A stretch of 64,000 bases of DNA from an uncultured Candidatus Saccharibacteria bacterium. GTDB lineage: Bacteria > Patescibacteriota > Minisyncoccia > Phycocordibacterales > JACOZG01. Under the pieces are notes generated by a model. It was not told the DNA's origin and did not search any database. It was given only the letters and a program-made list of their open reading frames with translations. Each line of letters begins with the position of its first letter. Position 1 is the first letter of the stretch. The stretch covers positions 23,838 through 87,837 of the forward strand of contig CAYUVV010000001.1 of NCBI GenBank assembly GCA_964448295.1. The letters are read 5' to 3'. A program made the translations under genes and the position numbers. Shown here piece after piece: positions 21,607 through 56,818 of this stretch.

Positions 21607-23574
21607 TTATCGGGGTACCAATTCAAAATCGATTTGGCGTTCGGGGAGATTAACGCCAACAACCTTCACGCGGATTTTGTCGCCGAGGCGGAAACGTCGT
21701 CCGTGCCGTTCGCCGACGATAGCGTAATTTTTTTCGTCGAAAACAAAAAAGTCATCACCCAAGGCGCCGATGCGCACCAACCCGTCGGCGAGCGTTTCTT
21801 CCTCTTGCACGAAGAGACCCCACTTCGCGAGTCCGGAAATCACACCGGAAAAAACTTGACCCACGCGTTCGGCCATATATTCCACCTGTTTATATTTTAT
21901 GGAATCACGCTCGGCTTCTGCCGCTTCTTGTTCCTTGAGCGAGGCGTAAATTACCTGCCGATCATACTGCTCGAGTAAATCCGCTGGCGGTTTTTGGTTA
22001 TGCAAATAATAATCGAGCAAGCGGTGGACCATTATGTCTGGATAACGGCGGATCGGAGAGGTGAAGTGCGTATAGTGGGCGAAAGCCAAACCGTAGTGAC
22101 CGATATTTTGCGTTGAGTAAACGGCCTTGGCCATGGTGCGCATTAGGGCGGTGTTGATCAACTGTTCTTCCGGTCGGCCGGCGGCTCGTCGCAAAAAATC
22201 ATTGATTGTTTTCGAATTTACTTGGCCGTTGCGGTGCTCCAATTTGTAGCCGAGCGAGCCGAGAAAATTGGCCAATTGTTCTAGGCGCTCGGCATCGGGC
22301 GCGTCGTGAATGCGGTATACAAACTGGTGTTTGCTGTTTTTAATGTGCCGGGACGCAAACTCAGCCACCAGACGATTGGCGAGCAACATAAAATCTTCGA
22401 TTAAGAGATGAGCATCTTGACGCTTTTTGCGGATAACCCGGAGCGGACGACCGTGTTTATCAAGTTCAAATTTGATCTCGTCTTTCTCGAACGCGATCGC
22501 TCCGTTGGCAAACTTTTCTTGGCGCAAGGTCAAAGCCAGACGGTTGAGGTCAAGCAGGGCTTCGCGATGTTCCGATTTTCCACCCTCCAAAACGGCTTGA
22601 GCCGCTTCGTAACTAAAGCGTTTGATCGAGCGGATAATGGTTCGTCCGATCCAGCGTTCAACGATCTGGTTTCGAGAGTCAAAAATAACGATCACCGAAA
22701 AAGCTAATTTGTCTTCGTCTGGATTCAAACTGCAGAGGTCGTTCGAAAGTATTTCCGGCAACATCGGGATGGTGCGGTCCACGAGATAGATCGAAGTGGC
22801 GCGGCGCGCGGCCTCGGCATCGAGCGCGCCGCCCGGCTTGAGGTAGTGAGCCGGATCGGCGATATGGATGCCCACTTCGGTTTGACCGTTTTCCAACCGG
22901 CGCCAAGAAATGGCATCGTCAAAGTCTTTGGCGTCGTCTGGATCAATAGTAAAGGTGACGACGCCGCGGCAATCGCGGCGGTTTTTGACTTCCGCCGTGA
23001 GGTCAGTGGCGGCGGCAGCCTTGATTTGCTCCGCTTCGGTTTGGGCCGCGGCCGGGAAGGCGAGCGCGAAGCCACGCGCCAAAACGATCGCCCGCATTTC
23101 CGTTTCGTGCTCGCCCGCTTGGCCGATATCTTCCCGCACCTCGGCGATCGGTTCTTTTTTGGAATCGTCCCAAACCCGGAGTCGGGCGAGCGCCTTGTGC
23201 CCGGGTTTGGCGCCGTTCAAGCTTTCTGGCGGCAAAAGGAAATCCCGATAGATCCGCCGATCGTCGGGGCGGAGAAAATAAAAACCGTTTTGTTGTTCAA
23301 TTGTCCCGACGAAATCTATTCGCGCTCGTTCAAGGATGGCGCTAACCTCGCCGCTGTAACGCGTTTCCGCGCGGCCGCGGAAAGTGCGGCGTTCCGGCGG
23401 ATAGAGGAGCACGCGAACACGGTCGCCGGGTAGGGCTGTGTTCAAATTAGCTGTTTCAATCTCGACGGCGGGGGAGTCTGGCCGCCGTTTTTTCCCTTCG
23501 ACCGCTGGTTCGAGATCAACGTAGCCAATACCTTTGCCGGAGATGCGGATTTCACCCTCAATTTGGTTTTTCAC
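21607..23574 (-). CDS. rnr: Ribonuclease R / RNase II-family 3'-5' exoribonuclease
   Basis: N-terminal OB folds, a central RNB catalytic domain and a C-terminal S1 domain (FSGVISGLAKWGLFVQEE...). Confidence 0.8.
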   Translation of the reverse strand: MKNQIEGEIRISGKGIGYVDLEPAVEGKKRRPDSPAVEIETANLNTALPGDRVRVLLYPPERRTFRGRAETRYSGEVSAILERARIDFVGTIEQQNGFYFLRPDDRRIYRDFLLPPESLNGAKPGHKALARLRVWDDSKKEPIAEVREDIGQAGEHETEMRAIVLARGFALAFPAAAQTEAEQIKAAAATDLTAEVKNRRDCRGVVTFTIDPDDAKDFDDAISWRRLENGQTEVGIHIADPAHYLKPGGALDAEAARRATSIYLVDRTIPMLPEILSNDLCSLNPDEDKLAFSVIVIFDSRNQIVERWIGRTIIRSIKRFSYEAAQAVLEGGKSEHREALLDLNRLALTLRQEKFANGAIAFEKDEIKFELDKHGRPLRVIRKKRQDAHLLIEDFMLLANRLVAEFASRHIKNSKHQFVYRIHDAPDAERLEQLANFLGSLGYKLEHRNGQVNSKTINDFLRRAAGRPEEQLINTALMRTMAKAVYSTQNIGHYGLAFAHYTHFTSPIRRYPDIMVHRLLDYYLHNQKPPADLLEQYDRQVIYASLKEQEAAEAERDSIKYKQVEYMAERVGQVFSGVISGLAKWGLFVQEEETLADGLVRIGALGDDFFVFDEKNYAIVGERHGRRFRLGDKIRVKVVGVNLPERQIDFELVPR

Positions 23575-23621: not shown

Positions 23622-24149
23622 TTGGGAAAATGTAGTGTGGAGATTAAGGACCTTTCATTAACTGGAGGATTCGTGATGCCAATAATGACGAGAGCGGTTC
23701 CCGGGAGGGTGAAAAAGGGACAAGTGAACTGGCCGGCTGTGCGTGTTTTATTGAAAGACGTATATCCAAATGTCGAATTCGTAATAGGAGGAATCGTTGC
23801 CGGTCTACCAATGACGATGGGCTGGAAGTTGATTCCGCCGCAGGACGGAGCTAATGCCGCAATCGAGTTGTATTGCTGGTTCCCGGTTGGTCCGGCGGGC
23901 TCGGGCAGGCGGAAAATCAATTCTGCCGATAGCTGGGCCATGGCAATTCCGGGTCTAGATCGGGCTCGATTTATCGAGCCCACCGAACAGGAATTGGAAG
24001 TTCTGGGCAAAACCGTTTTGCGTCTCGTCAATAATTTTCCCAACCTTAGGATCCGCAAGGCCGGTTGGAAAGGACGGGATAACTTGGTGGAGGCGGGTAT
24101 TTATCTGTATAAAATCCTGCCCAAACCGATGCCCACTTTTCCCTCTTGA
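23622..24149 (+). CDS. Hypothetical protein
   Basis: 175-aa ORF divergent from rnr. No recognisable motif. Confidence 0.35.
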   Translation: MGKCSVEIKDLSLTGGFVMPIMTRAVPGRVKKGQVNWPAVRVLLKDVYPNVEFVIGGIVAGLPMTMGWKLIPPQDGANAAIELYCWFPVGPAGSGRRKINSADSWAMAIPGLDRARFIEPTEQELEVLGKTVLRLVNNFPNLRIRKAGWKGRDNLVEAGIYLYKILPKPMPTFPS

Positions 24150-24465: not shown

Positions 24466-24795
24466 ATGGTAAAACTGCGTTTGCAGAGAGTTGGTCGCAA
24501 GCGGGAACCGGCGTACCGTGTGGTGGCGATGGATTCGCGCCGCGCCGCGAAGAGTGGTCGCGTGCTTGAGGTGCTTGGCGCGCACGACGCGCGCCGCGGC
24601 CGCCCGGTTTTAAAAGCCGAGCGCGTGCGCTACTGGCTCGGGGTAGGCGCCCAACCGTCGGTGACGGTGCATAATTTTCTCGTGGACGCGAAGATAATTG
24701 ACGGAGCGAAAAAAGACGCTCGTCCGCCGCGCCCGCCGAAAACGGAAACTGTCGTACCGGCTGAGTCTGCGGCCCCCGCGCCGGCCGCCGCCTAG
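24466..24795 (+). CDS. rpsP: 30S ribosomal protein S16
   Basis: MVKLRLQRVGRKREPAYRVVAMDSR. Confidence 0.9.
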   Translation: MVKLRLQRVGRKREPAYRVVAMDSRRAAKSGRVLEVLGAHDARRGRPVLKAERVRYWLGVGAQPSVTVHNFLVDAKIIDGAKKDARPPRPPKTETVVPAESAAPAPAAA

Positions 24796-24895: not shown

Positions 24896-25219
24896 ATGGC
24901 CGAAATTTTTTCCGATCAGGCGTTTTTGGAGCAGGTAGTTAAAGCGCTGGTGGATAATCCCAATGACGTTAAGATCAATCGCAAAGTAGACGAGATGGGA
25001 GTGCTCATTACCCTCGACGTTAATCCGGCGGATATGGGCAAGGTGATTGGCCGTCAAGGCAACACCGCCAAGGCGATCCGGACGCTCCTGCGGGTGGTGG
25101 GGATGAAAAATAATGCCCGCGTTAATTTGAAGATCAATGAACCGGCTGGCGGTTCACGCCCGACGAGCGCTACCGCCTCGATGGACGAGGTGATGGCCGA
25201 CATCAAAAACGAGGAGTAG
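24896..25219 (+). CDS. KH-domain RNA-binding protein (UPF0109/YlqC-like)
   Basis: KH core VIGRQGNTAKAIRTLLRVVG. It occupies the conserved position between rpsP and trmD. Confidence 0.8.
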   Translation: MAEIFSDQAFLEQVVKALVDNPNDVKINRKVDEMGVLITLDVNPADMGKVIGRQGNTAKAIRTLLRVVGMKNNARVNLKINEPAGGSRPTSATASMDEVMADIKNEE

Positions 25220-25224
25220 GCGCC

Positions 25225-25899
25225 TTGTTGACCGTTCACATCGTTACGCTTTTCTACGAGGCCATTGCTCCCTATCTGGAGGCCTCGATTCTTGGCCGCG
25301 CCGTTCGGGCGCGGCTCGTGCGTTTTCAACTCTGGAATTTAAAAGATTTTGCCGAAAAAGCGCCGTCGGGTCGAATTACTCGTCGGGTTGACGACAAGGC
25401 CTATGGCGGTGGGCCAGGGATGGTTTTGCGCGCCGAGCCCATGCTTCGGGCCGCTGAAAAAATTTTCCGGAGTTACAACAACCAAACCAAACCGCGAGTA
25501 ATAATTTTTTCGCCGGCCGGTAAACAGTTTGAGCAAAAACTAGCGGGCCGTTGGGCCAAGCAGAAACGCGACCTTATTCTCATTGCCGGCCGCTATGAGG
25601 GAGTGGATGCGCGGGTTAAAAAAATTTTGCGAGCGGAATTGGTTTCGATTGGCCCTTACGTTTTGGCTGGCGGAGAGTTACCGGCCCTGGTTGTGGCCGA
25701 GGCCGTGGCTCGGCACTTGCCCGGCGTTTTGGGCGACCCCGAGTCGCTTGAAGAAAGGCGCGTGGCTTCGCCCGAGGTTTACACTAGGCCCGAAGTGCTC
25801 GAATACCACGGCCGCCGTTACCGCGTGCCCAAAGTTCTTCTCTCCGGCCACCATCGGGAGATAGAAGAGTGGCGACTTGATAAAAAGGACGAGATTTGA
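25225..25899 (+). CDS. trmD: tRNA (guanine37-N1)-methyltransferase
   Basis: ILIAGRYEGVDARV and SIGPYVLAGGELPALVVAEAVARHLPGVLG (SPOUT knot region). Confidence 0.9.
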   Translation: MLTVHIVTLFYEAIAPYLEASILGRAVRARLVRFQLWNLKDFAEKAPSGRITRRVDDKAYGGGPGMVLRAEPMLRAAEKIFRSYNNQTKPRVIIFSPAGKQFEQKLAGRWAKQKRDLILIAGRYEGVDARVKKILRAELVSIGPYVLAGGELPALVVAEAVARHLPGVLGDPESLEERRVASPEVYTRPEVLEYHGRRYRVPKVLLSGHHREIEEWRLDKKDEI

Positions 25900-25919
25900 C
25901 ATATCACAAAAAGAGAAAA

Positions 25920-25958
25920 GGGGTTACCCACGGTATGTTGTGGATAACCCCAATTTTT
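25920..25958 (+). terminator. Rho-independent terminator after trmD
   Basis: Stem GGGGTTACCCAC / GTGGATAACCCC with 1 mismatch, then AATTTTTG. Confidence 0.55.
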
Positions 25959-26022
25959 GCGACCGCCTTCGGCGGAATTCAAGGAATCAAGAGACCCAAG
26001 AATTCCAGACCTCAAGGGTCGA

Positions 26023-26910
26023 TTACTGCGGAAGGAAGGCCGACACCGAGCCATAGTAGGCGCGGGCATCGTCGAACCAGTCGGCGCTGAACACGACCTC
26101 GCCGTCGTAGAAGTGGAAGAACGGCGCGAACGAGAAGCCGCCATCGGCATCCGGAGCGAACTCGTCGCCGGCGCAGTCGGTGTCCAGCTCCTCCCAGCGG
26201 ACGTACCGCTCGGGGTGAACCAGAGCCATGCATCCGACAGCGAACGCACCGAGACCGAACTCGTTGCCGACGAAGCACTCGCGTGCCCGGCGGGTGGAAC
26301 GTCCACGATGGCGCATTCCGTACTGAGCCGCCACGATCAGGATGTCGCCCTTCTGCGTCTCGGCGAGCTTGCCGAGGGCATTGAGCGTCCTCACGTGCTG
26401 GCGCAGACGGTTCGGCGTGATCTCGCCCTCCCGGTAGTTGTAGAACTTCCGGGACTTGCCGATCCGTTCGAGCACGAGCTCAACGGCACGGCAGTAGTGG
26501 TCAGCCGGGTCGGTCACCTCGGGGAAGTGCTTGGTAGCTACGGCGTCCACCGTCGGAATGGCGAACCACCCTTCGGCGCCCATCGGGAGTTCCGGCAAGG
26601 TCTTGGCGAATTCGAGCGCATGGCTCGAATCGAGACCAAGGATCTCGGCGATGGCCTTGATCTGGTCGTTGATCGGCTTCGGACCCCGGTACTCACGCGG
26701 GTACGTGTAGCCCGTCTCGACCTCCTCGTCGGCGAACTGGTTGGTGATGGAGTGCTTCTCGATGAGCTCTTTCAAGCCCACCTGGAATTCTCCGCCGTTT
26801 TCGATGACGCGCTGAGCACCATCCTTGTCGAGGCGCAGGGCGTCGAGCCCGTCCTCCATGAGCCGAACGACTTGCTTGCGTTGGTTCGACGTGATCGATT
26901 TTGTCGTCAT
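26023..26910 (-). CDS. Hypothetical protein, visibly higher G+C than its surroundings (candidate horizontally acquired gene)
   Basis: 295-aa ORF with strongly G/C-biased third codon positions, unlike its neighbours. No recognisable motif. Confidence 0.5.
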   Translation of the reverse strand: MTTKSITSNQRKQVVRLMEDGLDALRLDKDGAQRVIENGGEFQVGLKELIEKHSITNQFADEEVETGYTYPREYRGPKPINDQIKAIAEILGLDSSHALEFAKTLPELPMGAEGWFAIPTVDAVATKHFPEVTDPADHYCRAVELVLERIGKSRKFYNYREGEITPNRLRQHVRTLNALGKLAETQKGDILIVAAQYGMRHRGRSTRRARECFVGNEFGLGAFAVGCMALVHPERYVRWEELDTDCAGDEFAPDADGGFSFAPFFHFYDGEVVFSADWFDDARAYYGSVSAFLPQ

Positions 26911-26967
26911 CGTCTACCTCCTGTGTTTTGAATTTACCGGAATCGCCCGGCAATCGGCTTTCCTCAA

Positions 26968-27022
26968 CATGAGGCGAGCGTGGTGGCTGTAAATGGCTTA
27001 TAACCACTACGCTTGCCTCATA
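26968..27022 (+). other. Long imperfect hairpin (18-bp stem, 17-nt loop) in a 470-nt non-coding region
   Basis: CATGAGGCGAGCGTGGTGG ... CCACTACGCTTGCCTCATA. The stem includes two G-U pairs that form only in a plus-strand RNA. Confidence 0.5.
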
Positions 27023-27354
27023 ATTAAGCCCTTTTTAAGGTACTAAATAATCGTGTAATCATAGCAAAAAACTGTCTTTCTGTCAAAACCATCACATGAG
27101 TCCCTCTAACGTGCTAAAATAGCATTGAGTATAGGCTAATGTACAGTCGTCTACGGATTACTGTCGCCGAACTCTCTCATCAAGAGAAAACAACCAGAAA
27201 CGGATTCTCCGACAGCTAAGTAAAAAGATTGAGCAACGAGAGAACGGGTTGATAACTGACAAAAATTTTAAGGCTTCTTTTAATTCTCACCTGGGTGTTT
27301 TGTCTCATTGCAATGGCTATTAGTTGGCAGAGAATTTGAAAAATTGGGGATGGG

Positions 27355-27383
27355 TTGACCAATCAAATAGGGTGCGCTAGGAT
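27355..27383 (+). promoter_or_regulatory. Candidate promoter TTGACC-17-TAGGAT directly upstream of rpsS (near-leaderless)
   Basis: The -10 hexamer ends 9 nt before the rpsS ATG at 27393. Confidence 0.4.
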
Positions 27384-27392
27384 GTGCGGGCT

Positions 27393-27746
27393 ATGACTCG
27401 ATCATTGCGCAAGGGGCCGTTTACGGACCCCAAGCTTTTAAAAAAGATTACTGGTCGCAAGCCGGCCGAGGTTGGCGTGGTCAAGACTTGGTCGCGGGCC
27501 TCGCAAATCAGCCCCGAAATGATCGGGTTTACTTTCGGCGTGCACAACGGTCGCGAGCATCGGCCGGTGCTCGTGACGGAGGAAATGGTTGGCCACCGCT
27601 TGGGCGAATTTTCTTTTACTCGAAAATTTGTCCGGCATGGCGGTAAAATGCAGAAAGAACTGGAGCAAAAGAAGCGCGACGCGGAGATTGCCGCCGCCAA
27701 AGCGGCGCGTGAAGCCGGCGCCGATAGCGCTGCCGCCAAGGCTTAG
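27393..27746 (+). CDS. rpsS: 30S ribosomal protein S19, with a K/A-rich C-terminal extension
   Basis: [10 protein letters not shown]... and NGREHRPV. The track ORF starts at a GTG at 27384. No rplB or rplW lies upstream. Confidence 0.9.
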
Positions 27747-27757
27747 TTTGTTGTTTT

Positions 27758-28123
27758 ATGAAAGCCGTTCTCCGCAATTACCGCCAGTCTCCGCGCAAGG
27801 TTCGCTTGCTCGCCGATTTGGTTCGCGGCCAATCTCTGCCGGTGGCTGATCGCACCCTCCAGTTTGCCGTCAAACGGGCGGCCGGACCGTTGCGCAAATT
27901 GCTGAAGTCGGCGGCGGCCAACACAAAAAAGATGGCCGGCGGAAAATCGCCCGCTGGCGACGAGACGCAAGGCGAACTGTTCGTCAAGTCAATTCGCGTT
28001 GATCAGGGCTTGGTGTACAAACGTTTTCGGCCGGGAGCTTTCGGGCGCGCCTATCCCTACCGCAAAAAGACGAGCCACGTAGCGGTGGAACTCGATCGCC
28101 GACCAATTAAAAAAACCAAATGA
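27758..28123 (+). CDS. rplV: 50S ribosomal protein L22
   Basis: MKAVLRNYRQSPRKVRLLADLVRG. Confidence 0.9.
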   Translation: MKAVLRNYRQSPRKVRLLADLVRGQSLPVADRTLQFAVKRAAGPLRKLLKSAAANTKKMAGGKSPAGDETQGELFVKSIRVDQGLVYKRFRPGAFGRAYPYRKKTSHVAVELDRRPIKKTK

Positions 28124-28776
28124 CCCACACCGTTCATCCTTATGCCCATCGTTTGGGTATCATCCGCGACTGGCGCTCGCGCTGGTTTGGGCGGCGCGGC
28201 CAATACCAAGAGTTTTTGCGCGCCGACGTGTTACTGCGCGAATTTTTGCAGAAGCGCCTTCGCGGCTTGTTTGTGGCTGGACTCGAGATCGAGCGTGGCC
28301 AGGATTCTTTGCGGTTGCTTGTTCGTTCCTCTCGGCCGGGGATGATCATTGGCCGGGCGGGTGAGGGTTCAACCAAACTCAAGAACGACATTTTTAGATT
28401 TATGCGCCGGCGGCGATTGCCAATAGCACGCGATTTTAAATTGGATATTGAGGAGGTTAAAAACCCAGAAACCGAGGCGGCGATTCTTGCCCAGATGGTC
28501 GTGGAGGGTTTGGAACGGCGCTTGCCTTTCCGCCGTGTTTTGAAGCAGGTCGCCGACAAAGCGATGGCCCAGAGTCGCGTCGCCGGCGTGCGCTTGGAGG
28601 TCGCCGGGCGTCTTGGTGGAGCGGAGATCGCGCGTACGGAATGGTTGAAACGCGGTCGTTTGCCCCTGCAGACCTTCCGCGCCGACATTGATTTTGCTCG
28701 GGAGGAGGCCTTGCTATCTTACGGTGTGATTGGCGTTAAGGCCTGGGTCTACCGGGTGGAAGAATCTGGAAAATAA
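28120..28776 (+). CDS. rpsC: 30S ribosomal protein S3
   Basis: Conserved S3 N-terminus plus KH and C-terminal domains. Confidence 0.9.
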   Translation: MTHTVHPYAHRLGIIRDWRSRWFGRRGQYQEFLRADVLLREFLQKRLRGLFVAGLEIERGQDSLRLLVRSSRPGMIIGRAGEGSTKLKNDIFRFMRRRRLPIARDFKLDIEEVKNPETEAAILAQMVVEGLERRLPFRRVLKQVADKAMAQSRVAGVRLEVAGRLGGAEIARTEWLKRGRLPLQTFRADIDFAREEALLSYGVIGVKAWVYRVEESGK

Positions 28777-28778
28777 AT

Positions 28779-29198
28779 ATGTTGGTCCCGAAAAAAGTCA
28801 AACATCGCAAGTGGCACACGATGCGTCGCAACCCCAACAAACCTCGCCAAGAGAGTCGCGGTTTAGACGTGTCTTTCGGGTCATTCGGCCTTAAAGCTCA
28901 AACTCCCGGCCGCCTCCGCTCGAATCAGATTGAGGCGGCGCGGAAGGTCATTGTGCGGGCGACGCGGAAAGGTGGCAAGGCCTGGATTCGCGTTTTTCCC
29001 GACAAGCCCTACACGGCTAAGCCAGCCGAGGTTGGTATGGGTAAAGGTAAGGGCGACCCCCAAGGTTATGAGGCCCTGATTTGGCCAGGACGGATCATTT
29101 TTGAGATTGACGGTGTGGTCGAAAACGAAGCCCGATCAATTTTGCGTCAGGCTGGCTCGAAGTTGCCGTTTCGCACCTCGGTGGTGGCTCGGTCATAA
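28779..29198 (+). CDS. rplP: 50S ribosomal protein L16
   Basis: MLVPKKVKHRKWH... Confidence 0.9.
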   Translation: MLVPKKVKHRKWHTMRRNPNKPRQESRGLDVSFGSFGLKAQTPGRLRSNQIEAARKVIVRATRKGGKAWIRVFPDKPYTAKPAEVGMGKGKGDPQGYEALIWPGRIIFEIDGVVENEARSILRQAGSKLPFRTSVVARS

Positions 29199-29210
29199 TT
29201 TTGTATTACC

Positions 29211-29414
29211 ATGGCCCGTAACAAAAGAACCACTAAGCAACCGGAAACTGCCACCGAGCGCTTGACGACTTTGACGGCTAAGCGGGAGGAATTACGCCGC
29301 CTGCGTTTCGGCGGCGCGGGCGCTGGCAAAACCACGAACGTGCGCCGGATTCGCGTCTTGCGGCGCGAGATTGCTCGCCTGCTCGGTGATTGGCCACGGT
29401 CGGAAAATCATTAA
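29211..29414 (+). CDS. rpmC: 50S ribosomal protein L29
   Basis: 67 aa, with the L29 helical pattern LRxLxxEELxxxLxxLRxELFxLRF. Confidence 0.85.
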   Translation: MARNKRTTKQPETATERLTTLTAKREELRRLRFGGAGAGKTTNVRRIRVLRREIARLLGDWPRSENH

Positions 29415-29419
29415 AAGAT

Positions 29420-29677
29420 ATGAACGATAAAATTCAAACATCAAAACCGCCAGCCACCGGCCGAGTGCTCGAGGGCGTGATCGTCTCAGCCAAAACTCCC
29501 CAAACGGTGGTGGTGGAAGTCAGCCGGTTTGTGCTTCACCCTCGTTATGGGAAGTTTATTCGTCGGTCTAAACGTTATCTTGCGCATTATGAAGGCGAGA
29601 CGCCGGCGCTTGGGGCGCGGGTGCGGATGGTGAGCGGTCGTCCGCGCTCACGCCGTAAAACTTTTGTGCTTCTATGA
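29420..29677 (+). CDS. rpsQ: 30S ribosomal protein S17
   Basis: GRVLEGVIVSAKTPQTVVVEV. Confidence 0.85.
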   Translation: MNDKIQTSKPPATGRVLEGVIVSAKTPQTVVVEVSRFVLHPRYGKFIRRSKRYLAHYEGETPALGARVRMVSGRPRSRRKTFVLL

Positions 29678-30045
29678 TCCAACCACGTTCGATCGTTAAA
29701 GTGGCTGATAATACTGGCGCCAAGGTCGGTCGCGTTTTCCATATTCTTGGTGGTACGCGTCGCCGCTACGCTCGTTTAGGCGATCGGTTGGTAATGTCGG
29801 TGCAAGAGGCGGAACCCAAAAAAGCGATCAAAAAGCATCAGGTCGTGCACGCAGTGGTGGTGCGGCAAACACGGCCGTTTCGTCGTCGCGATGGTTCTTA
29901 CGTTAGTTTTGACGAGAACGCCGTGGTGATTATCGAAAAAGGTAAGTTTGACCCGCTTGGCGCCCGGGTTTTCGGCCCGATGCCGCGCGAACTCGTCGAG
30001 CGCGGCTACCAGAAGATTGTCTCGCTGGCGCCCGAAATAGTTTAA
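29674..30045 (+). CDS. rplN: 50S ribosomal protein L14
   Basis: MIQPRSIVKVADNTGAK. Confidence 0.9.
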   Translation: MIQPRSIVKVADNTGAKVGRVFHILGGTRRRYARLGDRLVMSVQEAEPKKAIKKHQVVHAVVVRQTRPFRRRDGSYVSFDENAVVIIEKGKFDPLGARVFGPMPRELVERGYQKIVSLAPEIV

Positions 30046-30049
30046 ATTT

Positions 30050-30355
30050 ATGTGGTTAAAGAAAAATGACAAGGTGGTGGTGCTCACCGGAACGAGTCGC
30101 GGTCAGCAGGCCAAGGTAGAAAGGGTTTTGCGTTCAACAGGGCGCGTAATTGTTGAGGGTGTTAATTTGAAGAATCGTCGTTTGCGCCCGCGTCGCCAAG
30201 GTGAGAAGGGCCAGGTCGTCGCCACGGCCGCCCCGCTCCATATCTCAAACGTCGGCCTCTGGTGCGAGTCCTGCCGCCGGCCGGTGCGTCCGGCGGTGAA
30301 GGTGACGGTTGACGGAAAGAGTCGGATCTGCCGCCGTTGTGAACGCGTTCTCTAA
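30050..30355 (+). CDS. rplX: 50S ribosomal protein L24, with a C-terminal CxxC...CxxC zinc-ribbon extension
   Basis: KOW motif KKNDKVVVLTGTSRGQQAKV. The tail reads CESCRRPV...CRRCERVL. Confidence 0.85.
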   Translation: MWLKKNDKVVVLTGTSRGQQAKVERVLRSTGRVIVEGVNLKNRRLRPRRQGEKGQVVATAAPLHISNVGLWCESCRRPVRPAVKVTVDGKSRICRRCERVL

Positions 30356-30368
30356 CTCAATATATTTT

Positions 30369-30902
30369 ATGGTTTCTCTGAAACAAAAACTAATTGACAT
30401 CCGGCCGGAATTGGCGAAAGCCGTTGGTCGCGAGAATTTTTTATCTTTGCCGAGGATTATTAAAGTGGTGGTCTCGGCTCGGACTGGTCGCCAGCGCGAT
30501 AAAGCCCGCCAAGCCCTGGTGTCTGACCGTTTAGCGAAAATCACGGGGCAGAAACCAGCGGCCGTGGCGGCCAGGCAGTCAATCGCTACTTTCAAACTCC
30601 GCAAGGGAGAAACAATTGGCTGGCGAGTAACGTTGCGGGGCGAGCGCCGGTTTGATTTTTTGGATCGCTTGCTCAATATCGCCGTGCCTCGGATGCGCGA
30701 TTTTCGCGGTTTTGAGGAAAAGAGCGTGTCGGCAACTGGGGTGTTGACTCTTGGGTTGCGTGAACACACCATTTTTCCCGAGACGGCCAACGAAGACCTA
30801 AAAGATGTTTTTGGTTTAGCGGTGAGTGTGGTAACCACCGCTCGTAATCGGGACGAGGCCTTGATTTTTCTGCGCCTGCTTGGTTTTCCGTTTAAACGTT
30901 AA
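30369..30902 (+). CDS. rplE: 50S ribosomal protein L5
   Basis: RDFRGF motif. ATG at 30369. Confidence 0.85.
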   Translation: MVSLKQKLIDIRPELAKAVGRENFLSLPRIIKVVVSARTGRQRDKARQALVSDRLAKITGQKPAAVAARQSIATFKLRKGETIGWRVTLRGERRFDFLDRLLNIAVPRMRDFRGFEEKSVSATGVLTLGLREHTIFPETANEDLKDVFGLAVSVVTTARNRDEALIFLRLLGFPFKR

Positions 30903-30950
30903 GAAAATTGACGATGACTATTTTTTCTGCTAATATCGCCGCACTGTTTC

Positions 30951-31136
30951 ATGGCTAAGAAGTCGGTTATTGCTCGAGCTTTACGGACTCCAAAGTGGAG
31001 TAGTCGCGTGGTGCGACGATGTTTTCGTTGTGGTCGAGGGCGGGCGTTTATGCGCGATTTTGGCCTGTGCCGGATCTGCTTTCGCGAACTGGCTAACGAG
31101 GGTAAGATTCCCGGCGTCAAAAAGTCTTCTTGGTAA
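30951..31136 (+). CDS. rpsN: 30S ribosomal protein S14, zinc-binding type Z (61 aa)
   Basis: [10 protein letters not shown]...CRIC motif. Confidence 0.9.
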
Positions 31137-31148
31137 ACTGTTTATTTT

Positions 31149-31544
31149 ATGACTCACGATCCATTGGCCGATTTCATCACTCGTTTGAAAAACGCCTCAC
31201 TTGTGGGGCGCCGGACGGTTACCGCCCCGCATTCTCGTTTGCGTTTGGCGGTGGCAGAATTGTTGCAACGCGAGGGTTATCTGACGCGGGTCGTTGTTTC
31301 TGGCCAGAAAAACAAAAAGTCGTTGATGGTTGATATTGCCTATAACGCCGAAGGTCGACCGGCTTTTTCTGATGTTCAACGTTGGTCCAAACCGTCGCGC
31401 CGAGTTTATCTCGGTCGGCAGGCGCTCTGGCCGGTGCGCCGTGGTCGTGGACGTCTCATTGTTTCGACCTCGCAAGGAGTGATGACGGGCGAGGCGGCAC
31501 GGCGGGCGCGATTAGGGGGCGAGGCCTTGTTCGCTATTTGGTAA
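31149..31544 (+). CDS. rpsH: 30S ribosomal protein S8
   Basis: MTHDPLADFITRLKNA. Confidence 0.9.
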   Translation: MTHDPLADFITRLKNASLVGRRTVTAPHSRLRLAVAELLQREGYLTRVVVSGQKNKKSLMVDIAYNAEGRPAFSDVQRWSKPSRRVYLGRQALWPVRRGRGRLIVSTSQGVMTGEAARRARLGGEALFAIW

Positions 31545-31546
31545 CC

Positions 31547-32089
31547 ATGTCGAGAATTGGCAAACAAACCATCCTCGTCCCTTCCGCGGTTAAGGTTCGT
31601 ATGGAAGGCGAAACAACGGTCACCATTACCGGACCGCGGGGAGAATTGCGTCGAACTTTTCGGCCAGAAATCAAAATCAATTTTGCGCCGGAGACGGGTT
31701 TGCAGCTCGCGCCTCTCCCAACGGCCGTGGAGGACCGGGCTTTGTGGGGAACCTACGCCGCGCATTTGAAGAACATGGTGTCGGGCGTTGTTAAGGGTTT
31801 TGAGAAAAAATTGATTCTTGAAGGTGTTGGTTACCGAATGGCGGTTGAGGGCGCCAGTCTCAAATTGAACATTGGTTTATCTCATCCAGTGTTGGTGCCG
31901 ATTCCTCAAGGCCTCGCCCTTAAGGTGGATAAGAACCTGCTTGAAGTCAGTGGTTGCGATTGCGAATTGGTCGGGCAATTTGCGGCCCGTCTTCGCGCCT
32001 TGCGGCCGCCGGAGCCCTACAAGGGTAAGGGCTTTCGGTATGAGGGGGAGGTAATCCGTCGCAAGCAGGGTAAGAAAGTGGTGGCGTAA
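31547..32089 (+). CDS. rplF: 50S ribosomal protein L6
   Basis: MSRIGKQTILVPSAVKV. The ATG at 31547 follows the rpsH stop; the track ORF starts at 31382 in the same frame. Confidence 0.9.
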   Translation: MSRIGKQTILVPSAVKVRMEGETTVTITGPRGELRRTFRPEIKINFAPETGLQLAPLPTAVEDRALWGTYAAHLKNMVSGVVKGFEKKLILEGVGYRMAVEGASLKLNIGLSHPVLVPIPQGLALKVDKNLLEVSGCDCELVGQFAARLRALRPPEPYKGKGFRYEGEVIRRKQGKKVVA

Positions 32090-32101
32090 ACAACACACGT
32101 T

Positions 32102-32476
32102 ATGGCCAATCTTCATACAACCAAAACACAAACTCGCGCGGGGCGTCGAGAGGCGCGAGCGCGACGAGTCCGAGCTCGGATCCGGGGGACGGCCGAGCGA
32201 CCGCGGTTGTCGGTCTTCCGCTCCGGCCGGCACATTTATGCTCAACTGATTGATGATGCGCGAGGAGCGACCCTGGCGACAGCCGACGATCGGGCTCTCA
32301 CCGGCGCCAAGAAAAAAAGCAAGCGGGATTCGGCCTTTCGCGTTGGCCAGCTGATAGCCGAGCGGGCGAATGGTTGTCAGATCAAGGCGGTGGTGTTCGA
32401 TCGGGCGGGTTACCGTTACGCTGGTCGGGTCCAGGCGTTGGCCGACGGGGCGCGGGCGGGCGGGCTCAAATTTTAA
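32102..32476 (+). CDS. rplR: 50S ribosomal protein L18
   Basis: [20 protein letters not shown]. Confidence 0.9.
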
Positions 32477-32486
32477 CTAATTTTTT

Positions 32487-32999
32487 ATGTCTGAAGCAAC
32501 GGGAAATCACAGTGGCGGTCGGGGCGAACGAGGGCGTGGTGGTCGTGGCCGCCAAGACCGACCTGACTCGGACCTTGGCCACAAGGTTTTGGCGATTAGA
32601 CGGGTGACTCGGGTGGTGCGCGGTGGCCGACGCTTTAGCTTTTCGATTGTTCTGGTGGCGGGCGATCGTCGCGGGAAAGTGGGGATTGGTGTGGGCAAGG
32701 CCAGCGATATTGCGGTGGCGATTGAGAAGGCGATGAACAACGCCCGCAAGAATTTAATTAGTGTTTATCTCACACCAGAATTTACTCTGCCTCACGAAGT
32801 GTCGGCGAAGTTTAGTTCAGCTTTGGTGTCTATCCGGCCTTCGCCCGGGCGTGGATTAGTGGCGGGTAGCGCCGTTCGGGCCGTGCTCGAGTTGGTCGGC
32901 GCGCGCGATATCAGCGCCAAGATTTATTCCCGAAGCAAAAATCATTTGAATAACGTGCAGGCGGCACTCCGCGCCCTGCAAACGGTTAAGCCCGTCTAA
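32487..32999 (+). CDS. rpsE: 30S ribosomal protein S5
   Basis: dsRBD-like N-terminus and GIGVGKASDIAVAIEKA. rplO follows directly with no rpmD (L30) between them. Confidence 0.9.
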   Translation: MSEATGNHSGGRGERGRGGRGRQDRPDSDLGHKVLAIRRVTRVVRGGRRFSFSIVLVAGDRRGKVGIGVGKASDIAVAIEKAMNNARKNLISVYLTPEFTLPHEVSAKFSSALVSIRPSPGRGLVAGSAVRAVLELVGARDISAKIYSRSKNHLNNVQAALRALQTVKPV

Positions 33000-33011
33000 C
33001 TTTTTCAAAAG

Positions 33012-33440
33012 ATGCAATTACACGAGTTACAACCAAACACCAAACGGCGCGCTGGCAAACGCGTGGGGCGCGGAGGCAAGCGTGGCACCACGGCTGGCCG
33101 CGGCACGAAGGGTCAAAAGGCGCGGGCCGGGCACCGGATTCGTCCGGAGATTAGAGACGTGATTAAGCGTTTGCCAAAACTCCGTGGTCACGATTTTCGC
33201 CTTGGACGTTCGACGCCGCGGGTGGTTGTGCCTTTATCTCGTTTGCTTACGCTAAAAGAGCGGGTGATCACGCCGTTCGTTTTGCGCCGCGCCGGTTTAA
33301 TCCCGTCCGCCGCTCGTCTGCGGGTTAAGATTTTGGCCGACCACAGCGAAGTCAAAATTCCTATCCGGCTTAAGGGTTGTGATGTTTCCACGGCGGTGCG
33401 GGCGATGGTTGAAAAAGCCGGCGGCAAAATTCAAGTTTAA
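33012..33440 (+). CDS. rplO: 50S ribosomal protein L15
   Basis: Gly/Arg-rich N-terminus. Confidence 0.9.
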   Translation: MQLHELQPNTKRRAGKRVGRGGKRGTTAGRGTKGQKARAGHRIRPEIRDVIKRLPKLRGHDFRLGRSTPRVVVPLSRLLTLKERVITPFVLRRAGLIPSAARLRVKILADHSEVKIPIRLKGCDVSTAVRAMVEKAGGKIQV

Positions 33441-33443
33441 AAT

Positions 33444-34718
33444 ATGTGGTCAATTTTTACACAGAAAATTCATTTAGTGTGGCAAGATCCCACCTTGCGC
33501 CGCCGGCTTCTTTTTGCGGTTTTTATCCTCGGGCTGTTTCGTTTAGGAGCGGCGGTGCCGGTGGCTGGCGTTGATCCGGAGGCGTTAGGCCGATTGTTTG
33601 CCTCCAGTCAGTTTTTGGGCCTGCTTAATATTTTTTCCGGCGGCGGGCTTGAGAATCTCTCGATTGTGATGTTGGGTGTTGGTCCGTTTATCACCGCCTC
33701 CATCGTGATGCAGCTTTTAACGGTAATGTTTCCGTCTCTGAAGGAACTCTATCAAGAATCCGGCGAGCTTGGGCGCAAGCGTTTTGCCCAATACTCTCGT
33801 TTGCTGACTGTGCCTTTGGCCGCGGTGCAAGGCCTTGGTTTGCTCGCTTTACTCAAGAGTCAGGGCCTCTTGCTTCACTTAACCCCTTTTCAAGAGATGA
33901 CGAATATTATTGTGATTATTGCCGGCTCTGTTCTCTTGATGTGGCTTGGTGAATTGATCAATGAATATGGGGTGGGTAACGGGGTATCGCTGATTATTTT
34001 TGCTGGTATTGTGGCCGGTTTGCCAACGGCTCTGACTCAAGTCTGGGCTTCTTATGACGTTGCCCAGATTCCGGTTTATCTCGCTTTTCTGGTGATTTCG
34101 ATTTTGACTGTCGCCGGCGTGGTGTTCATCACCGAGGCGGAGCGTCCGATTCCGGTCACGTATGCCAAACAGGTGCGGGGGATGAAAATGTATGGCGGCG
34201 TTTCGACGTATCTGCCCATTCGGTTGAATCAGGCGGGGGTGATGCCGATAATTTTTGCCTTATCGCTTTTGCTTTTCCCTCGTCTCGTCTTTGATTATTT
34301 GAGCCGGATTGATCAAGCGCTGATTAGCCAAACGGCTCTGTGGCTCCGCGACTTGATTGATAATTTGTGGTTTTATTCCTCGGTGTATTTCGTGCTGGTT
34401 TTTGCTTTCACTTATTTTTATTCAGCGATTACCTTTGATCCTCAATCTATTTCGACCAATCTCCAGAAAAATGGCGCGTTTATTCCCGGCATTCGTCCCG
34501 GCCGGCCGACCGCTGATTATTTAACTCGTGTTATCACCCGCCTAACCTTAGTGGGCGGTTTGTTTCTAGGCGTGATCGCGCTTTTGCCTTTAGTGATGCG
34601 AGCGGCTACGGGGGTGTCGGCGTTGGCGATTGGCGGCACCGGTTTGCTGATTGTGGTTTCCGTGTCTCTGGAACTAGTCAAACAAATTGACAGTCAGATC
34701 TCGATGCGCGAATACTAA
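33444..34718 (+). CDS. secY: Preprotein translocase subunit SecY
   Basis: 424 aa with ten TM helices and the conserved GIMPII-like motif GVMPIIFA. In the canonical position after rplO. Confidence 0.9.
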   Translation: MWSIFTQKIHLVWQDPTLRRRLLFAVFILGLFRLGAAVPVAGVDPEALGRLFASSQFLGLLNIFSGGGLENLSIVMLGVGPFITASIVMQLLTVMFPSLKELYQESGELGRKRFAQYSRLLTVPLAAVQGLGLLALLKSQGLLLHLTPFQEMTNIIVIIAGSVLLMWLGELINEYGVGNGVSLIIFAGIVAGLPTALTQVWASYDVAQIPVYLAFLVISILTVAGVVFITEAERPIPVTYAKQVRGMKMYGGVSTYLPIRLNQAGVMPIIFALSLLLFPRLVFDYLSRIDQALISQTALWLRDLIDNLWFYSSVYFVLVFAFTYFYSAITFDPQSISTNLQKNGAFIPGIRPGRPTADYLTRVITRLTLVGGLFLGVIALLPLVMRAATGVSALAIGGTGLLIVVSVSLELVKQIDSQISMREY

Positions 34719-34742
34719 AATTGTGTTAGACTGACGACCGAT

Positions 34743-35336
34743 ATGATGCCCCGCACTTTCATCTTTATGGGACGCTCGGGGGCGGGCAAGGGCGTACAGG
34801 TTAAACTGCTTCAAGATTGGCTCCGACGGGAAGATAAGCTCGGTCGGCCAATTGTTTACATTGAGACCGGTGAGTTACTGCGTCAGTTTGTGCGTGAGAC
34901 CAACCATTTAACTAGTACGCGCGCCGCCGCAGTGATGGGCTCTGGCGGGCGTTTGGCCGATTTTCTCCCAATCTATATTTGGTCGCGAGAATTGATAAAC
35001 CGACTGCAGGCCGCCGAGCATCTGATTTTAGATGGTGTGGCCCGCTCGCTAAACGAGGCGCGAACCTTGCAAACCGCTCTTGCTTTTTACGAACGGGCGA
35101 AGCCAGTGGTTGTTTATTTGAATATTTCTGCCGAAACCGCCGCCACTCGTTTGACGGGACGGGGCCGGGCCGATGATATAAAGTCATCGAGTAATCAAGC
35201 CCGTCAGCGTTGGTTTGATGAAGAGGTGTTGCCGGTGATTGATTATTATCGTCGGGATCCTTTTTATCAATTTGTGGAGATAAACGGCGAACAGGCGGAA
35301 ATGGAGGTGCATCAGAGTATTGTTTCGGTTCTATGA
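34743..35336 (+). CDS. adk: Adenylate kinase-like NMP kinase
   Basis: P-loop FMGRSGAGKG. In the canonical position between secY and map. Divergent. Confidence 0.7.
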   Translation: MMPRTFIFMGRSGAGKGVQVKLLQDWLRREDKLGRPIVYIETGELLRQFVRETNHLTSTRAAAVMGSGGRLADFLPIYIWSRELINRLQAAEHLILDGVARSLNEARTLQTALAFYERAKPVVVYLNISAETAATRLTGRGRADDIKSSSNQARQRWFDEEVLPVIDYYRRDPFYQFVEINGEQAEMEVHQSIVSVL

Positions 35337-36106
35337 CGGCCCGTCCTCGCCCTAAAACACCCGAGGAGGTGGCCAGGCTTCGGGCTGGCGGTAAGCGTCT
35401 GCGGCAAGTGCTTAAAGAATTAGCGGCCATAGCCAAGCCCGGCCTGACCACCGCTAAGTTGGATGAGCGGGCGCGAGATTTGATCGCCGCCAACGGCGAT
35501 CACCCGGCTTTTCTCGGTTATCAACCAAGCGATGCTCGGCGTCCATTTCCGGCCGCTCTTTGCGTGTCGGTGAACGACGAGGTTGTTCACGGGATTCCGG
35601 GCGAGCGAGTGTTGCAAATCGGCGACCTTGTTTCTCTTGATTTAGGCTTGGAACATGATGGCCTGTTTACCGACGCGGCGTTGACGATCTATCTTGGCGA
35701 TCAACCGCCGCGCGCAGTGGCACGTTTGCTTCGCGCTACTCGCGAAGCGCTGGCGGCCGGTATCAAGGCCGCGCGCGCCGAGGCTACAACCGGCGATGTT
35801 GGGGCGGCAGTGGCCGCTGTTGCCCGGCGTTATGGCTTCGGTTTGGTTCGAGAGCTCGGCGGACACGGCGTCGGTTATGCTGTCCATGAGCCACCGCTTA
35901 TTCCCAATTTTGGTCGGCCGGGCGAAGGGCCGCGTCTTGTGCCCGGTCTTGTTGTTGCGATCGAGCCGATGCTTGTCGCCGGCGGCGAAGCCGTGGAGTG
36001 GGGAAGTGATGGCTACACCGTTCGGACTCGTGACGGGGCGCTGGCCGCGCACTTTGAGGAAACCGTTCTTGTTGGCACAGCCGGGCCGGAAATTTTAACC
36101 GCTTAA
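35333..36106 (+). CDS. map: Methionine aminopeptidase type I
   Basis: Metal-ligand pattern D...D...H...E...E; GELGGHGVGYAVHEPPLIPNFG. Confidence 0.85.
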   Translation: MTARPRPKTPEEVARLRAGGKRLRQVLKELAAIAKPGLTTAKLDERARDLIAANGDHPAFLGYQPSDARRPFPAALCVSVNDEVVHGIPGERVLQIGDLVSLDLGLEHDGLFTDAALTIYLGDQPPRAVARLLRATREALAAGIKAARAEATTGDVGAAVAAVARRYGFGLVRELGGHGVGYAVHEPPLIPNFGRPGEGPRLVPGLVVAIEPMLVAGGEAVEWGSDGYTVRTRDGALAAHFEETVLVGTAGPEILTA

Positions 36107-36115
36107 AAATTTTTT

Positions 36116-36727
36116 ATGACCAAATTACACCCAAAAACTGAACGCACGCTTATTCTGATTAAACCCGACGGCATCCAACGTGCGCTCATTGGCGAGATTA
36201 TCGGCCGCTATGAGCGGCTCGGGCTCAAACTGGTCGGTTTGAAAATGCTTGTGCCGACCGAGGCGATGGTGGAAAAACATTACACTCTCGACCCGGACTG
36301 GCGACGCCTTACGGGAGAGAAGCGGGTCAAAGCGGCGCGCGAGCGTGGCGAAAAACTGGCGACGGAGGATCCTTACGAGATTACAGCCGTGATTTTGACC
36401 AAATTGAAAAAGTATTTGACGAGCGGACCGGTGGTGGCGATGGTTTGGCAGGGTGCCAACGCCGTGGCTATCGTCCGCAAGATTACTGGCGGTACCGAAC
36501 CGCTTGCCTCCGATGTGGGAACTATCCGCGGCGATTTCGTTCTTGACTCTTACTCTCTCGCCGATGATGACGAGCGGGCCGTTCGCAACCTCATTCACGC
36601 TTCCGGGTCCGTCAACGAGGCCACGGCCGAGATTAAGCACTGGTTCAAATCAAGCGAACTAATTAACTATCGCCTCGTTCAGGAGCAGATTCTCTACGAC
36701 GTCAATCTCGACGGTATATTGGAATAA
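36116..36727 (+). CDS. ndk: Nucleoside diphosphate kinase with a ~35-aa insertion and C-terminal extension (203 aa)
   Basis: ERTLILIKPDGIQRALIGEIIGRYE, TSGPVVAMVWQG and GTIRGDF. It replaces the expected infA-rpmJ-rpsM after map. Confidence 0.8.
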   Translation: MTKLHPKTERTLILIKPDGIQRALIGEIIGRYERLGLKLVGLKMLVPTEAMVEKHYTLDPDWRRLTGEKRVKAARERGEKLATEDPYEITAVILTKLKKYLTSGPVVAMVWQGANAVAIVRKITGGTEPLASDVGTIRGDFVLDSYSLADDDERAVRNLIHASGSVNEATAEIKHWFKSSELINYRLVQEQILYDVNLDGILE

Positions 36728-54867: not shown

Positions 54868-54955
54868 GGAGGGTTCGCATAGTGGTCTAGTGCGCTCGCT
54901 TGGAGAGCGAGTATGCTGCAAGGCATCAAGGGTTCGAATCCCTTACCCTCCGCCA
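54868..54955 (+). tRNA. tRNA-Ser(GGA), CCA encoded
   Basis: 88-nt type II tRNA. Acceptor GGAGGGT/ACCCTCC, anticodon loop TTGGAGA, variable-arm hairpin, T-arm AAGGG-TTCGAAT-CCCTT, G-CCA. Confidence 0.85.
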
Positions 54956-55960
54956 ATTTGCACATTCGCCGATTTGGGGATTGGTTGCCTCGCGGCTTCG
55001 CCGCTCGGCATTGAATTTTGCGGGGATTTTCCAAGCATTTTTCAAATCCAAAACCAACGCCCGATCGGCAATGCGAAAGTTCGAACCAATCTTTTTGAGA
55101 AAATCCCGTCCCGCGACGGGATTTTCTTGCAAGGCGATATTTTCGGCTTGGTCGGCTTCTTTTATGAAATCAATCATGGGTTCGAACCGATTATTGCTCT
55201 TTCGCTCAAAAGCGTTGATTTTTTCTTCCAAATCCTTTTTAGCGAGAATGAGCTTGTGCTTTTTGGCGGCGTACTCCGTTTGTGAAAGCGAGCCGTCCAA
55301 ATGTAAATCTAAAAGTTTGTCTATCTTGCTTTCCATTTCTACAAGCTCATCTCGCGTCTTTTGAGCGAAAGAGCTTTCTGCTTGGGCGGTTTCCAGTTTT
55401 TCTTTTTCCAGTTCGTTTATGCAATTTTCCGCCCAAGCAGAACACAAAGAAACTTTTTGAATTTCATTTTTGATCTGCGAGGTGATGGCGTCCTCCCGTA
55501 CATACCTTTGCTCACAGCGGACTTTTCTTTTGGTGCACCGCAAGTAGTTATGTCTTTTCTGCGTTTCAGTGGTGATAAAACAACCGCACCCGCCACAGCG
55601 GAAAAGTCCGCGATAGATATATGGTTTGAGTTTTGGCGTTTTAGGTTTTGATTTTCTCGCCATCACCTCTTGGCATTTATCAAAAAGTTTCTTTGTGATA
55701 ATCGGTTCGTGCTTTCCGTCATACAATTCGCCATTGTACTCAATTACGCCGTAGTAGATTTTATTTTTGAGTATGTACTGGTAATTGGAGACGGAAAGCA
55801 CCTTGCCTTTCTTGCCAACCAAGCCCAAGGAATTGATAATCTTTCGGATTTGAGCTAGGGGATATTCGCCAGTTGAGTACATTTCAAAAGCCCGCTTGAT
55901 AAACTTTGATTTTTCTTTGTCCACAACTATTTTGCGGCTACAAATTGAAATAATCTCCAA
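54926..55960 (-). pseudogene. Large serine recombinase lacking the N-terminal catalytic resolvase domain (truncated integrase remnant)
   Basis: Starts at the recombinase domain (YPLAQIRKIINSLGLVGKKGKVLSVSNYQYILKNKIYYG). It has a zinc ribbon CGGCGCFITTE...LRC and a coiled-coil tail. The last 10 codons are antisense to the tRNA-Ser 3' end. Confidence 0.6.
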
Positions 55961-56813: not shown

Positions 56814-56818
56814 AATCT

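Follow-up and report, generated by a model that had tools for sequence, protein, structure and literature searches.

What stands directly upstream of rpsS in a bacterial genome whose ribosomal S10-spc cluster seems to have been cut short? The question arises from a 64-kb stretch of a Patescibacteria (Paceibacteria-like) genome with 52% GC, called the window below, in which the cluster opens at rpsS (27393-27746, plus strand) and is preceded by a 473-nt gap (26911-27383) and a divergent 295-aa open reading frame (ORF), ORF295 (26023-26910, minus strand). A first-pass annotation had taken this to be an ultra-conserved locus rearranged at both edges, with a foreign-looking gene marking the insertion or rearrangement that split the operon; the features it described are all present, at about the positions where it placed them. 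We found that the flagged region is very probably a decayed diversity-generating retroelement (DGR) lying directly upstream of rpsS, with ORF295 as its target gene. Three defining features of a DGR are absent from the window, namely a template repeat (TR) in cis, an intact reverse transcriptase (RT), and Avd; the locus is properly termed the remnant of a DGR, with an orphan target, rather than a DGR itself.

On sequence evidence, ORF295 is a DGR variable (target) protein of an unannotated family. Neither ORF295 nor 133 members of its family had a match in Pfam, NCBIfam, PHROGs, or PDB sequence searches. The database search of the 295-aa protein that the first-pass annotation had called for returned 2357 homologues, and a profile search led to 1917 clusters at 50% identity; those homologues that carry an organism name in their source are from Parcubacteria/Patescibacteria. 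The nearest relatives, with 87-92% protein identity, lie in two loci, L004 and L005, where they adjoin D12 methylase and ParB genes and, in L004, also a phage major capsid gene. In L004, genes for an RT and an Avd lie immediately upstream of the ORF295 homologue; the Avd scores above the NCBIfam DivGenRetAVD cut-off (89.4 versus 80 bits) and the RT matches phrog_1423 at 1.6e-113. Throughout the family set, which comprises 88 loci from viral and metagenome collections, the homologue is adjoined by a TR in 42 loci and by an RT in 36, and avd is present in at least 36 cassettes.

In an intact DGR, RT and Avd copy the TR RNA into cDNA, misincorporating opposite template adenines, and the variable repeat (VR) of the target gene is then overwritten by this cDNA. 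The VR of ORF295 is its last 131 nt (26025-26155, minus strand), covering residues 253-295, the last 43 codons. A second, inverted copy of these 131 nt, found upstream of the target genes of L004 and L005, is the TR. Compared with the TR of the relative L005 (L005:9403-9533), which stands in for a TR of the window itself, the VR has 17 mismatches over 131 nt. Each of the 17 falls on a TR adenine, and the 101 non-A positions all agree; 7 codons of this TR are AAC. The same bias runs through the ORF295 family, where 35 unique TR/VR pairs have 698 mismatches, 659 of them at TR adenines. TR and VR part ways at CCG(A/C)AGT, at the stop codon.

In the alignment of the protein family, a strongly conserved core gives way towards the C-terminus to a segment with a fixed scaffold and hypervariable residues at every other position. 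An AlphaFold model of ORF295 is confident, being helical in its N-terminal part and C-type-lectin-like in its C-terminal domain, so that the fold of a DGR variable domain is present in the predicted structure. Foldseek alone gave no significant match for this model; the structure matches obtained were to the C-terminal domains of Bd2740 (7.4) and Legionella Lcl (6.7), intimin (6.5), CD72 (6.0), and the DGR variable protein TvpA (5.7), with FGE and PvdO relatives also among them. The adenine codons of the TR fall at residues 258-286, and several of them alternate along two predicted beta-strands (261-268 and 271-278). Judged from the model, one face of a predicted beta-hairpin would be diversified, and in intact cassettes of the family VR replacement would rewrite alternate residues on this surface of the lectin-like domain. 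A 324-aa ORF antisense to ORF295 (25957-26931, plus strand) was rejected as a real gene and is a composition artefact, since it is open only in GC3-rich members of the family (GC3 being G+C content at third codon positions).

The other half of the element survives as a fragment in the gap, which had been described as a 470-nt AT-rich non-coding stretch. The gap is AT-rich (GC 0.42) and structured, as had been noted, but it holds a piece of a pseudogene. This RT remnant (27183-27380, plus strand) spans 65 codons, is interrupted in frame by a TAG at 27321-27323, and closes with a second TAG at 27378-27380; it reads RENNQKRILRQLSKKIEQRENGLITDKNFKASFNSHLGVLSHCNGY up to the first stop and LAENLKNWGWVDQSNRVR up to the second. 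In BLASTP, it is 35% identical to residues 288-349, the last 62, of the L004 RT (E 2e-13), and the very C-terminal ends of 26 family RTs also match it, with E values down to 4e-12. Its end lies 12 nt short of the rpsS ATG. The window contains no further RT sequence; tblastn with the L004 Avd found no avd there, and blastn at word size 7 found no second copy of the VR, that is, no TR, anywhere in the 64 kb.

Comparison with intact cassettes suggests how these parts were lost. Intact members of the family are laid out as target(+)-TR(+)-avd(-)-RT(+) or have the TR-avd-RT block inverted upstream of the target (e.g., L094:5-2652); avd is opposite in strand to TR and RT in every intact cassette (family loci L089-L172 and L004). 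The L004-type order is RT, reading away from the target, then inverted avd, TR, spacer, and target. Against this layout, the window fuses RT residue ~288 directly to the spacer, with the joint at 27198/27199. Up to that joint the target-gene module (25908-27198, minus strand) matches L005:9712-11003 over 1292 nt with 96.0% identity and L004, L093, and L127 with 86% identity, and all four homologies stop exactly at 27198, short of the TR position. In the simplest account, one internal deletion of ~1.6 kb would have taken out TR, avd, and RT residues 1-287. The element would then be inactive at present, and its VR frozen if no DGR in another part of the genome acts on it in trans. L005 underwent an independent truncation that left its TR and 11 avd codons, and an RT is missing from the vicinity in over half of the family loci for which 8-kb flanks are available; thus, loss of the machinery with the target kept is common.

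What the window retains, apart from this RT fragment, is the recipient half of the element, a mobile module made up of promoter, leader RNA, ORF295 with its VR, a repeat array, a GC hairpin, and a terminator. The predicted promoter (27058-27086, minus strand) consists of TTGACA, a 17-nt spacer, and TATGAT preceded by TG, giving 11 of 12 consensus positions and an extended -10 element, and it is kept in L005 and L004. Upstream of it, a presumably functional spacer of ~110 nt (27091-27198, plus strand) is shared with the L004 and L005 cassettes, in which it precedes the TR on the template strand. Within it is a weak promoter-like site, ATCACA-18-TAAAAT, at 27091-27120; the folding of the spacer is unremarkable (z -1.7).

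Between promoter and gene lies a structured leader RNA of 106 nt (26931-27036, minus strand), the 5' untranslated region of the target gene. It forms a long hairpin with a conserved base, AUGAGG/CCUCAU, a likewise conserved GAGG..AAGCCG linker, and a 6-bp hairpin whose loop lies within GAGCGAYUC; the strong hairpin at 26968-27016 folds with z -5.2 on the minus strand and -8.2 on the plus strand. RNAalifold on 25 leader sequences found compensatory double changes in 18 of 31 pairs. In an alignment of 45 unique sequences, which was fitted to the covariance model and is thereby biased towards structure, 93% of cells pair versus ~40% in slid controls, and 26 of the 31 pairs show compensatory changes. 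Because G.U cells outnumber A.C cells in these 45 sequences (175 versus 26), the leader is placed on the sense strand of the gene. Its covariance model, R1, scores 87.9 bits in the window and gives a single hit in each locus, invariably immediately ahead of the target gene, with no match in 1.27 Mb of control loci. A search of 25880-27420 against Rfam (cmscan, both strands, E <= 1) gave no hit, and a scan of the whole window at gathering thresholds returned tRNAs only.

Downstream of the VR, four exact copies of CTTGR with a period of ~8 nt form an array (25979-26016, minus strand) between the stop codon and a GC hairpin, CCGCC-GAA-GGCGG (25963-25975, minus strand), that was read from the sequence. 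The array is a family-wide feature: CTTGR occurs on average 2.5 times per 85 nt compared with 0.19 in shuffles, a 13-fold excess, at spacings of 8, 16-17, and 24-25 nt, and in 33 TR/VR pairs its mean is 3.0 per 85 nt after the VR versus 0.12 after the TR. The hairpin recurs in 25 of 71 family loci in a strict search for perfect stems. Characterized DGRs carry an initiation-of-mutagenic-homing (IMH) sequence and a GC-rich inverted repeat by the VR (Wu 2018, PMC5758913), and the window likewise shows, at the level of sequence, TR/VR homology that ends in an IMH-like segment with a GC-rich inverted repeat downstream. The hairpin may therefore be the counterpart of the inverted repeat of classical DGRs, and by analogy with IMH and inverted repeat it is plausible that array and hairpin together are recipient-site markers. 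The module closes with a predicted intrinsic terminator of ORF295 (25920-25951, minus strand), a 12-bp stem, GGGGTTATCCAC, followed by a T run; the 3' flank of the gene folds with z -6.4, and the stem sequence GGGG(Y)TATCCACA... is conserved across the family. The stem also contains a perfect DnaA-box-like TTATCCACA, and a similar GTGGATAAYCCCAAT occurs at 24950 and 25940.

Several points weigh against reading the locus as a decayed DGR. With TR, avd, and an intact RT all missing from the window, the assignment rests on descent and on relatives. The remnant is 30-44% identical to the C-termini of family RTs, which are themselves 39-74% identical to one another, and in this it differs from the target module with its 96% identity to L005. 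Because the remnant is divergent and the module is not, the two may have different histories, for example through a recombinational module swap, or the difference may reflect decay. Moreover, ~190 kb of the source contig lie beyond the window, where a trans-acting DGR is possible. Finally, the unlinking of rplB from rpsS and the adjacency of trmD are left unexplained by DGR decay.

The alternative that survives best shares much with our reading: the local DGR decayed, but ORF295 is diversified in trans, as a remote target, by an intact DGR of its family that lies in another part of the genome or on a resident phage. Remote targets are documented for DGRs (Roux 2021, PMC8144416), and the ORF, the 3' end of the VR, the CTTGR array, and the GC hairpin are all intact. 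The identity of the VR to a known TR (L005) at 101 of 101 non-A positions and the many family loci without a nearby RT also fit this view. Logan contigs from two samples start or end at 27141 and at 27392-27421 with k-1 overlaps; these contig ends imply alternative sequence paths, either other cassette copies or strain variants, in the sampled communities, and such branches of the assembly graph hint at related copies. However, the 64 kb hold no RT, avd, or TR that could serve, and the VR is identical in the window and in a Logan contig of the same sample (L001), leaving no within-sample VR diversity at the contig level. We consider continued diversification in trans unlikely, although it keeps a real share of the probability.

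A second alternative starts from base composition. In plain horizontal transfer, a gene from a GC-rich donor would have been inserted between rplB and rpsS and would have split the S10/spc operon. The contrast between ORF295 and its neighbors, seen already in the first-pass annotation, is real: its GC3 is 0.831 compared with a mean of 0.565 (standard deviation 0.085) for the other 64 ORFs of the window, the next highest value being 0.691 (z = 3.4), and the gene is thus an extreme outlier that lies outside their range. Its GC3 is 0.73-0.93 in every block of 30 codons. The module is also horizontally mobile, since it is 96% identical to one in an unrelated host of 40% GC (L005) and adjoins phage genes in L004 and L005. 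To this extent, the suggestion of an insertion was apt, in that the ORF and its flanks are mobile DNA, but nothing shows that an insertion split the operon.

The composition itself does not speak for a foreign source. Homologues exceed their flanks in GC by over 0.05 in 78 of the 79 family loci with enough flank (mean +0.17), and in all 35 intact cassettes the target has a higher GC3 than its own RT, by +0.32 on average (0.71 versus 0.39, with avd at 0.43). The excess holds in hosts with 33-63% GC, and target GC3 correlates with the RT GC3 of the cassette (r = 0.71, 35 cassettes). A foreign-donor island would deviate across its whole segment, with the deviation absent in orthologues elsewhere, and neither is the case here; the upstream part of the module is AT-rich, and RT and avd of intact cassettes are host-like in GC3. 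High GC3 is therefore characteristic of the target gene family at large, the target lying above its cognate RT in 35 of 35 cassettes, and not the signature of a GC-rich donor, contrary to the earlier reading of the anomaly. Moreover, the neighbor on the far side of the module is trmD and not rplB, the rplB/rpsS junction is split or unlinked by unrelated genes in 50 of 80 relatives, and there is no homologue from a GC-rich phylum among the source names listed. Insertion of a donor gene into the operon is therefore very unlikely, and the decayed DGR remains the preferred reading.

Three causes of the GC3 excess were considered and rejected. A-specific erosion by the RT disagrees with the depletion of both A and T at third positions (0.41x and 0.51x); a recombination-type gradient towards the VR disagrees with a GC3 that is high all along the gene, the VR decile alone being higher; and translational selection disagrees with the GC3 of 0.50-0.66 of the ribosomal protein genes and groEL in the window. 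A few family members have a host-like GC3 of 0.38-0.48 (e.g., L120, L136, and L138).

The remaining question is whether the ribosomal cluster was broken at all. We typed with Pfam the genes called on L002, a contig 100% identical to the window, and obtained the order rpsS-rplV-rpsC-rplP-rpmC-rpsQ-rplN-rplX-rplE-rpsN-rpsH-rplF-rplR-rpsE-rplO-secY-adk-map-ndk (27393-36727, plus strand). From rpsS through rplO-secY-adk-map this follows the canonical S10-spc-alpha cluster fully. It departs from the canonical cluster in having no rpsJ-rplB upstream, no rpmD between rpsE and rplO, and ndk (36116-36727, plus strand) after map in place of infA-rpmJ-rpsM-rpsK-rpoA. The lack of rpmD is a known trait of the candidate phyla radiation (CPR). 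Queries with E. coli S10, L2, L19, IF1, S13, and S11 gave zero tblastn matches across the 64 kb, bearing out the earlier statements that the cluster opens without rpsJ...rplB and that secY-adk-map is followed by ndk and not by infA...rpoA.

The claim that a normally ultra-conserved locus has been rearranged at both edges did not hold up when relatives were compared. The comparison covers 80 Paceibacteria loci from GTDB representative genomes, fetched through S19; all are rather distant, the best SecY identity being 62%, so that fine-scale synteny is out of reach. In 27 of these loci rplB lies within 400 nt of rpsS, in 38 it lies 0.4-5.6 kb upstream with unrelated genes between, and in 12 it was not found despite at least 900 nt of upstream sequence. 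The intervening genes include a membrane protein family, pyrimidine biosynthesis genes, and even rplJ-rplL; the last pair (L10 and L7/L12) occupies the gap in two relatives, L045:7472-8366 and L066:7508-8417. At the other end, map-ndk adjacency occurs in at least 16 relatives, and infA/rpsM follows map in none; both the 5' break and the map-ndk junction of the window are thus common to many Paceibacteria relatives. With 50 of 80 relatives having a split or unlinked rplB/rpsS junction and at least 16 having map-ndk, both cluster edges are lineage-typical, and what is peculiar to this genome is trmD as neighbor and a DGR at the spot. No DGR RT was found in the rplB-rpsS gaps of the relatives. 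One of them, from Zambryskiibacteria, has a different DGR ~5.4 kb downstream of rpsS (L015:15415-16767), with avd and an RT 44% identical to that of L004.

At rpsS the cluster probably begins a transcription unit of its own, as do the clusters of many relatives. Of 52 split or unlinked relatives, 21 have a promoter-like site, in most cases TTGACA-16/17-TAGTAT, that agrees at 10 or more of 12 positions and mostly lies 34-58 nt upstream of rpsS. The corresponding site of the window, TTGACC-17-TAGGAT (27355-27383, plus strand), is weaker, with 9 of 12 matches; it ends 9 nt before the rpsS ATG and is presumably in use. Upstream of the module lie rnr (21607-23574, minus strand), a hypothetical gene (23622-24149, plus strand), rpsP (24466-24795, plus strand), a KH-domain gene (24896-25219, plus strand), and trmD (25225-25899, plus strand; Pfam tRNA_m1G_MT, E 5e-39), which closes the rpsP-KH-trmD unit and whose stop codon lies 8 nt ahead of the module start at 25908. 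No rplS follows trmD, as judged by tblastn with E. coli L19 over the whole 64 kb. Because the upstream neighbor is the rpsP-KH-trmD unit, a larger rearrangement is involved.

Last among the alternatives, a misjoin of the trmD-ORF295 and rpsS regions at a repeat, which the same-sample Logan contigs stopping at 27392-27421 with k-1 overlap and the other-sample contig beginning at 27141 might suggest, is scarcely credible, since L001 runs unbroken and 100% identical from 16539 through ORF295 and the RT remnant to 27421, within the first 29 nt of rpsS, L003 from an independent sample runs at 99.8% identity from the module interior (27141) via the remnant into rpsS and 8.5 kb more (to 35968), and the 257-kb NCBI contig is concordant with the junctions. 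Together, L001 and L003 cover both junctions, which are genuine and not an assembly artefact.

The DGR of Bordetella phage BPP-1 (mtd-avd-TR-brt) is the paradigm for mutagenic retrohoming. The locus of the window resembles it in the C-terminal VR within a C-type-lectin-fold domain, here predicted, in the AAC-rich TR, in TR/VR homology that ends near the stop codon, and in a GC-rich inverted repeat downstream of the VR (Wu 2018, PMC5758913). Unlike that of BPP-1, which directly follows the IMH, the hairpin of the window lies ~50 nt past the VR, behind the array of 8-nt period; moreover, the target has neither a phage-tail context nor a signal peptide, and the RT is a pseudogene. With TvpA of Treponema denticola (PDB 2y3c), a DGR variable protein of FGE/C-type-lectin fold, ORF295 shares 8% sequence identity, and it differs from TvpA in lacking an FGE-sulfatase Pfam signature and a lipoprotein signal and in having a different N-terminal helical domain.

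The closest comparison is with the DGRs of Patescibacteria/CPR, which form the cellular "DGR clade 2" and whose CPR targets lack recognizable domains (Roux 2021, PMC8144416). Like these, the ORF295 family has a patescibacterial host, adenine-specific TR/VR differences, and RT with Avd (Roux 2021, PMC8144416), as well as a target without a recognizable Pfam or transmembrane domain and a VR at the extreme C-terminus; unlike them, the copy in the window has lost its TR, avd, and 82% of its RT. The cassettes of the ORF295 family are set apart by an avd inverted relative to TR and RT, a covarying leader RNA, a CTTGR array on the VR side, and the GC3 excess of the target. For the leader RNA, the VR-side array, the constant avd inversion, and the target GC3 excess we found no description in the DGR literature available to us, which did not include Paul et al. 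2017, reportedly on Patescibacteria/CPR DGRs.

Some other features of the window are recorded here. The S19 protein has an Ala/Lys-rich C-terminal extension of ~25 residues, and the ndk product has 203 aa, with an insertion that divides the match to its NDK domain into two stretches. The 3' end of a tRNA-Ser gene (54868-54955) is overlapped by a large serine recombinase gene (54926-55960, minus strand), which matches Pfam Recombinase and Zn_ribbon_recom without an N-terminal resolvase domain and is followed by a low-GC run (0.38-0.43) of hypothetical genes; the region 54868-62000 is probably a remnant of a tRNA-integrated element. Four small proteins of 118-136 aa, encoded in tandem at 99-1778, have hydrophobic segments that look membrane-spanning; the first has a weak, sub-threshold match to Pfam T4SS_pilin. 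A secreted-looking protein of 2426 aa (41801-49081) has beta-propeller-like segments and a repeat of ~90 residues (TTRTLATTANPSAGG...TVTANFGV), two copies of which are identical as read in translation.

Taken together, the locus is a degenerate member of the already catalogued Patescibacteria DGRs (Roux 2021, PMC8144416), and an apparent anomaly is removed: the "truncated" cluster and the "foreign" gene are accounted for by a decayed DGR at a junction that is often interrupted in Paceibacteria. The locus also leads to a very large unannotated protein family of Patescibacteria, with ~1,900 clusters at 50% identity and no Pfam model, and places this family among DGR variable proteins with a C-type-lectin-like domain. 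More tentatively, we suggest that the family has dedicated target cis-elements that appear undescribed, the leader RNA and the CTTGR array, both surviving in the window, together with a gene-specific force that keeps the synonymous sites of the targets ~0.3 richer in G+C than those of their own RT in any host. Such a force would speak for selection or repair connected with DGR targeting and not for gene transfer. The leader RNA could regulate expression of the variable protein, in the manner of a riboswitch or by binding a protein, and the CTTGR array could mark the recipient site for retrohoming. The covarying leader RNA, absent from Rfam, the recipient-side repeat array, and the target GC3 excess are all testable family-wide. 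If leader and array do act in regulation and target recognition, they would be new cis-requirements for the DGR mechanism, and they could help to find orphan or remote DGR targets in metagenomes.

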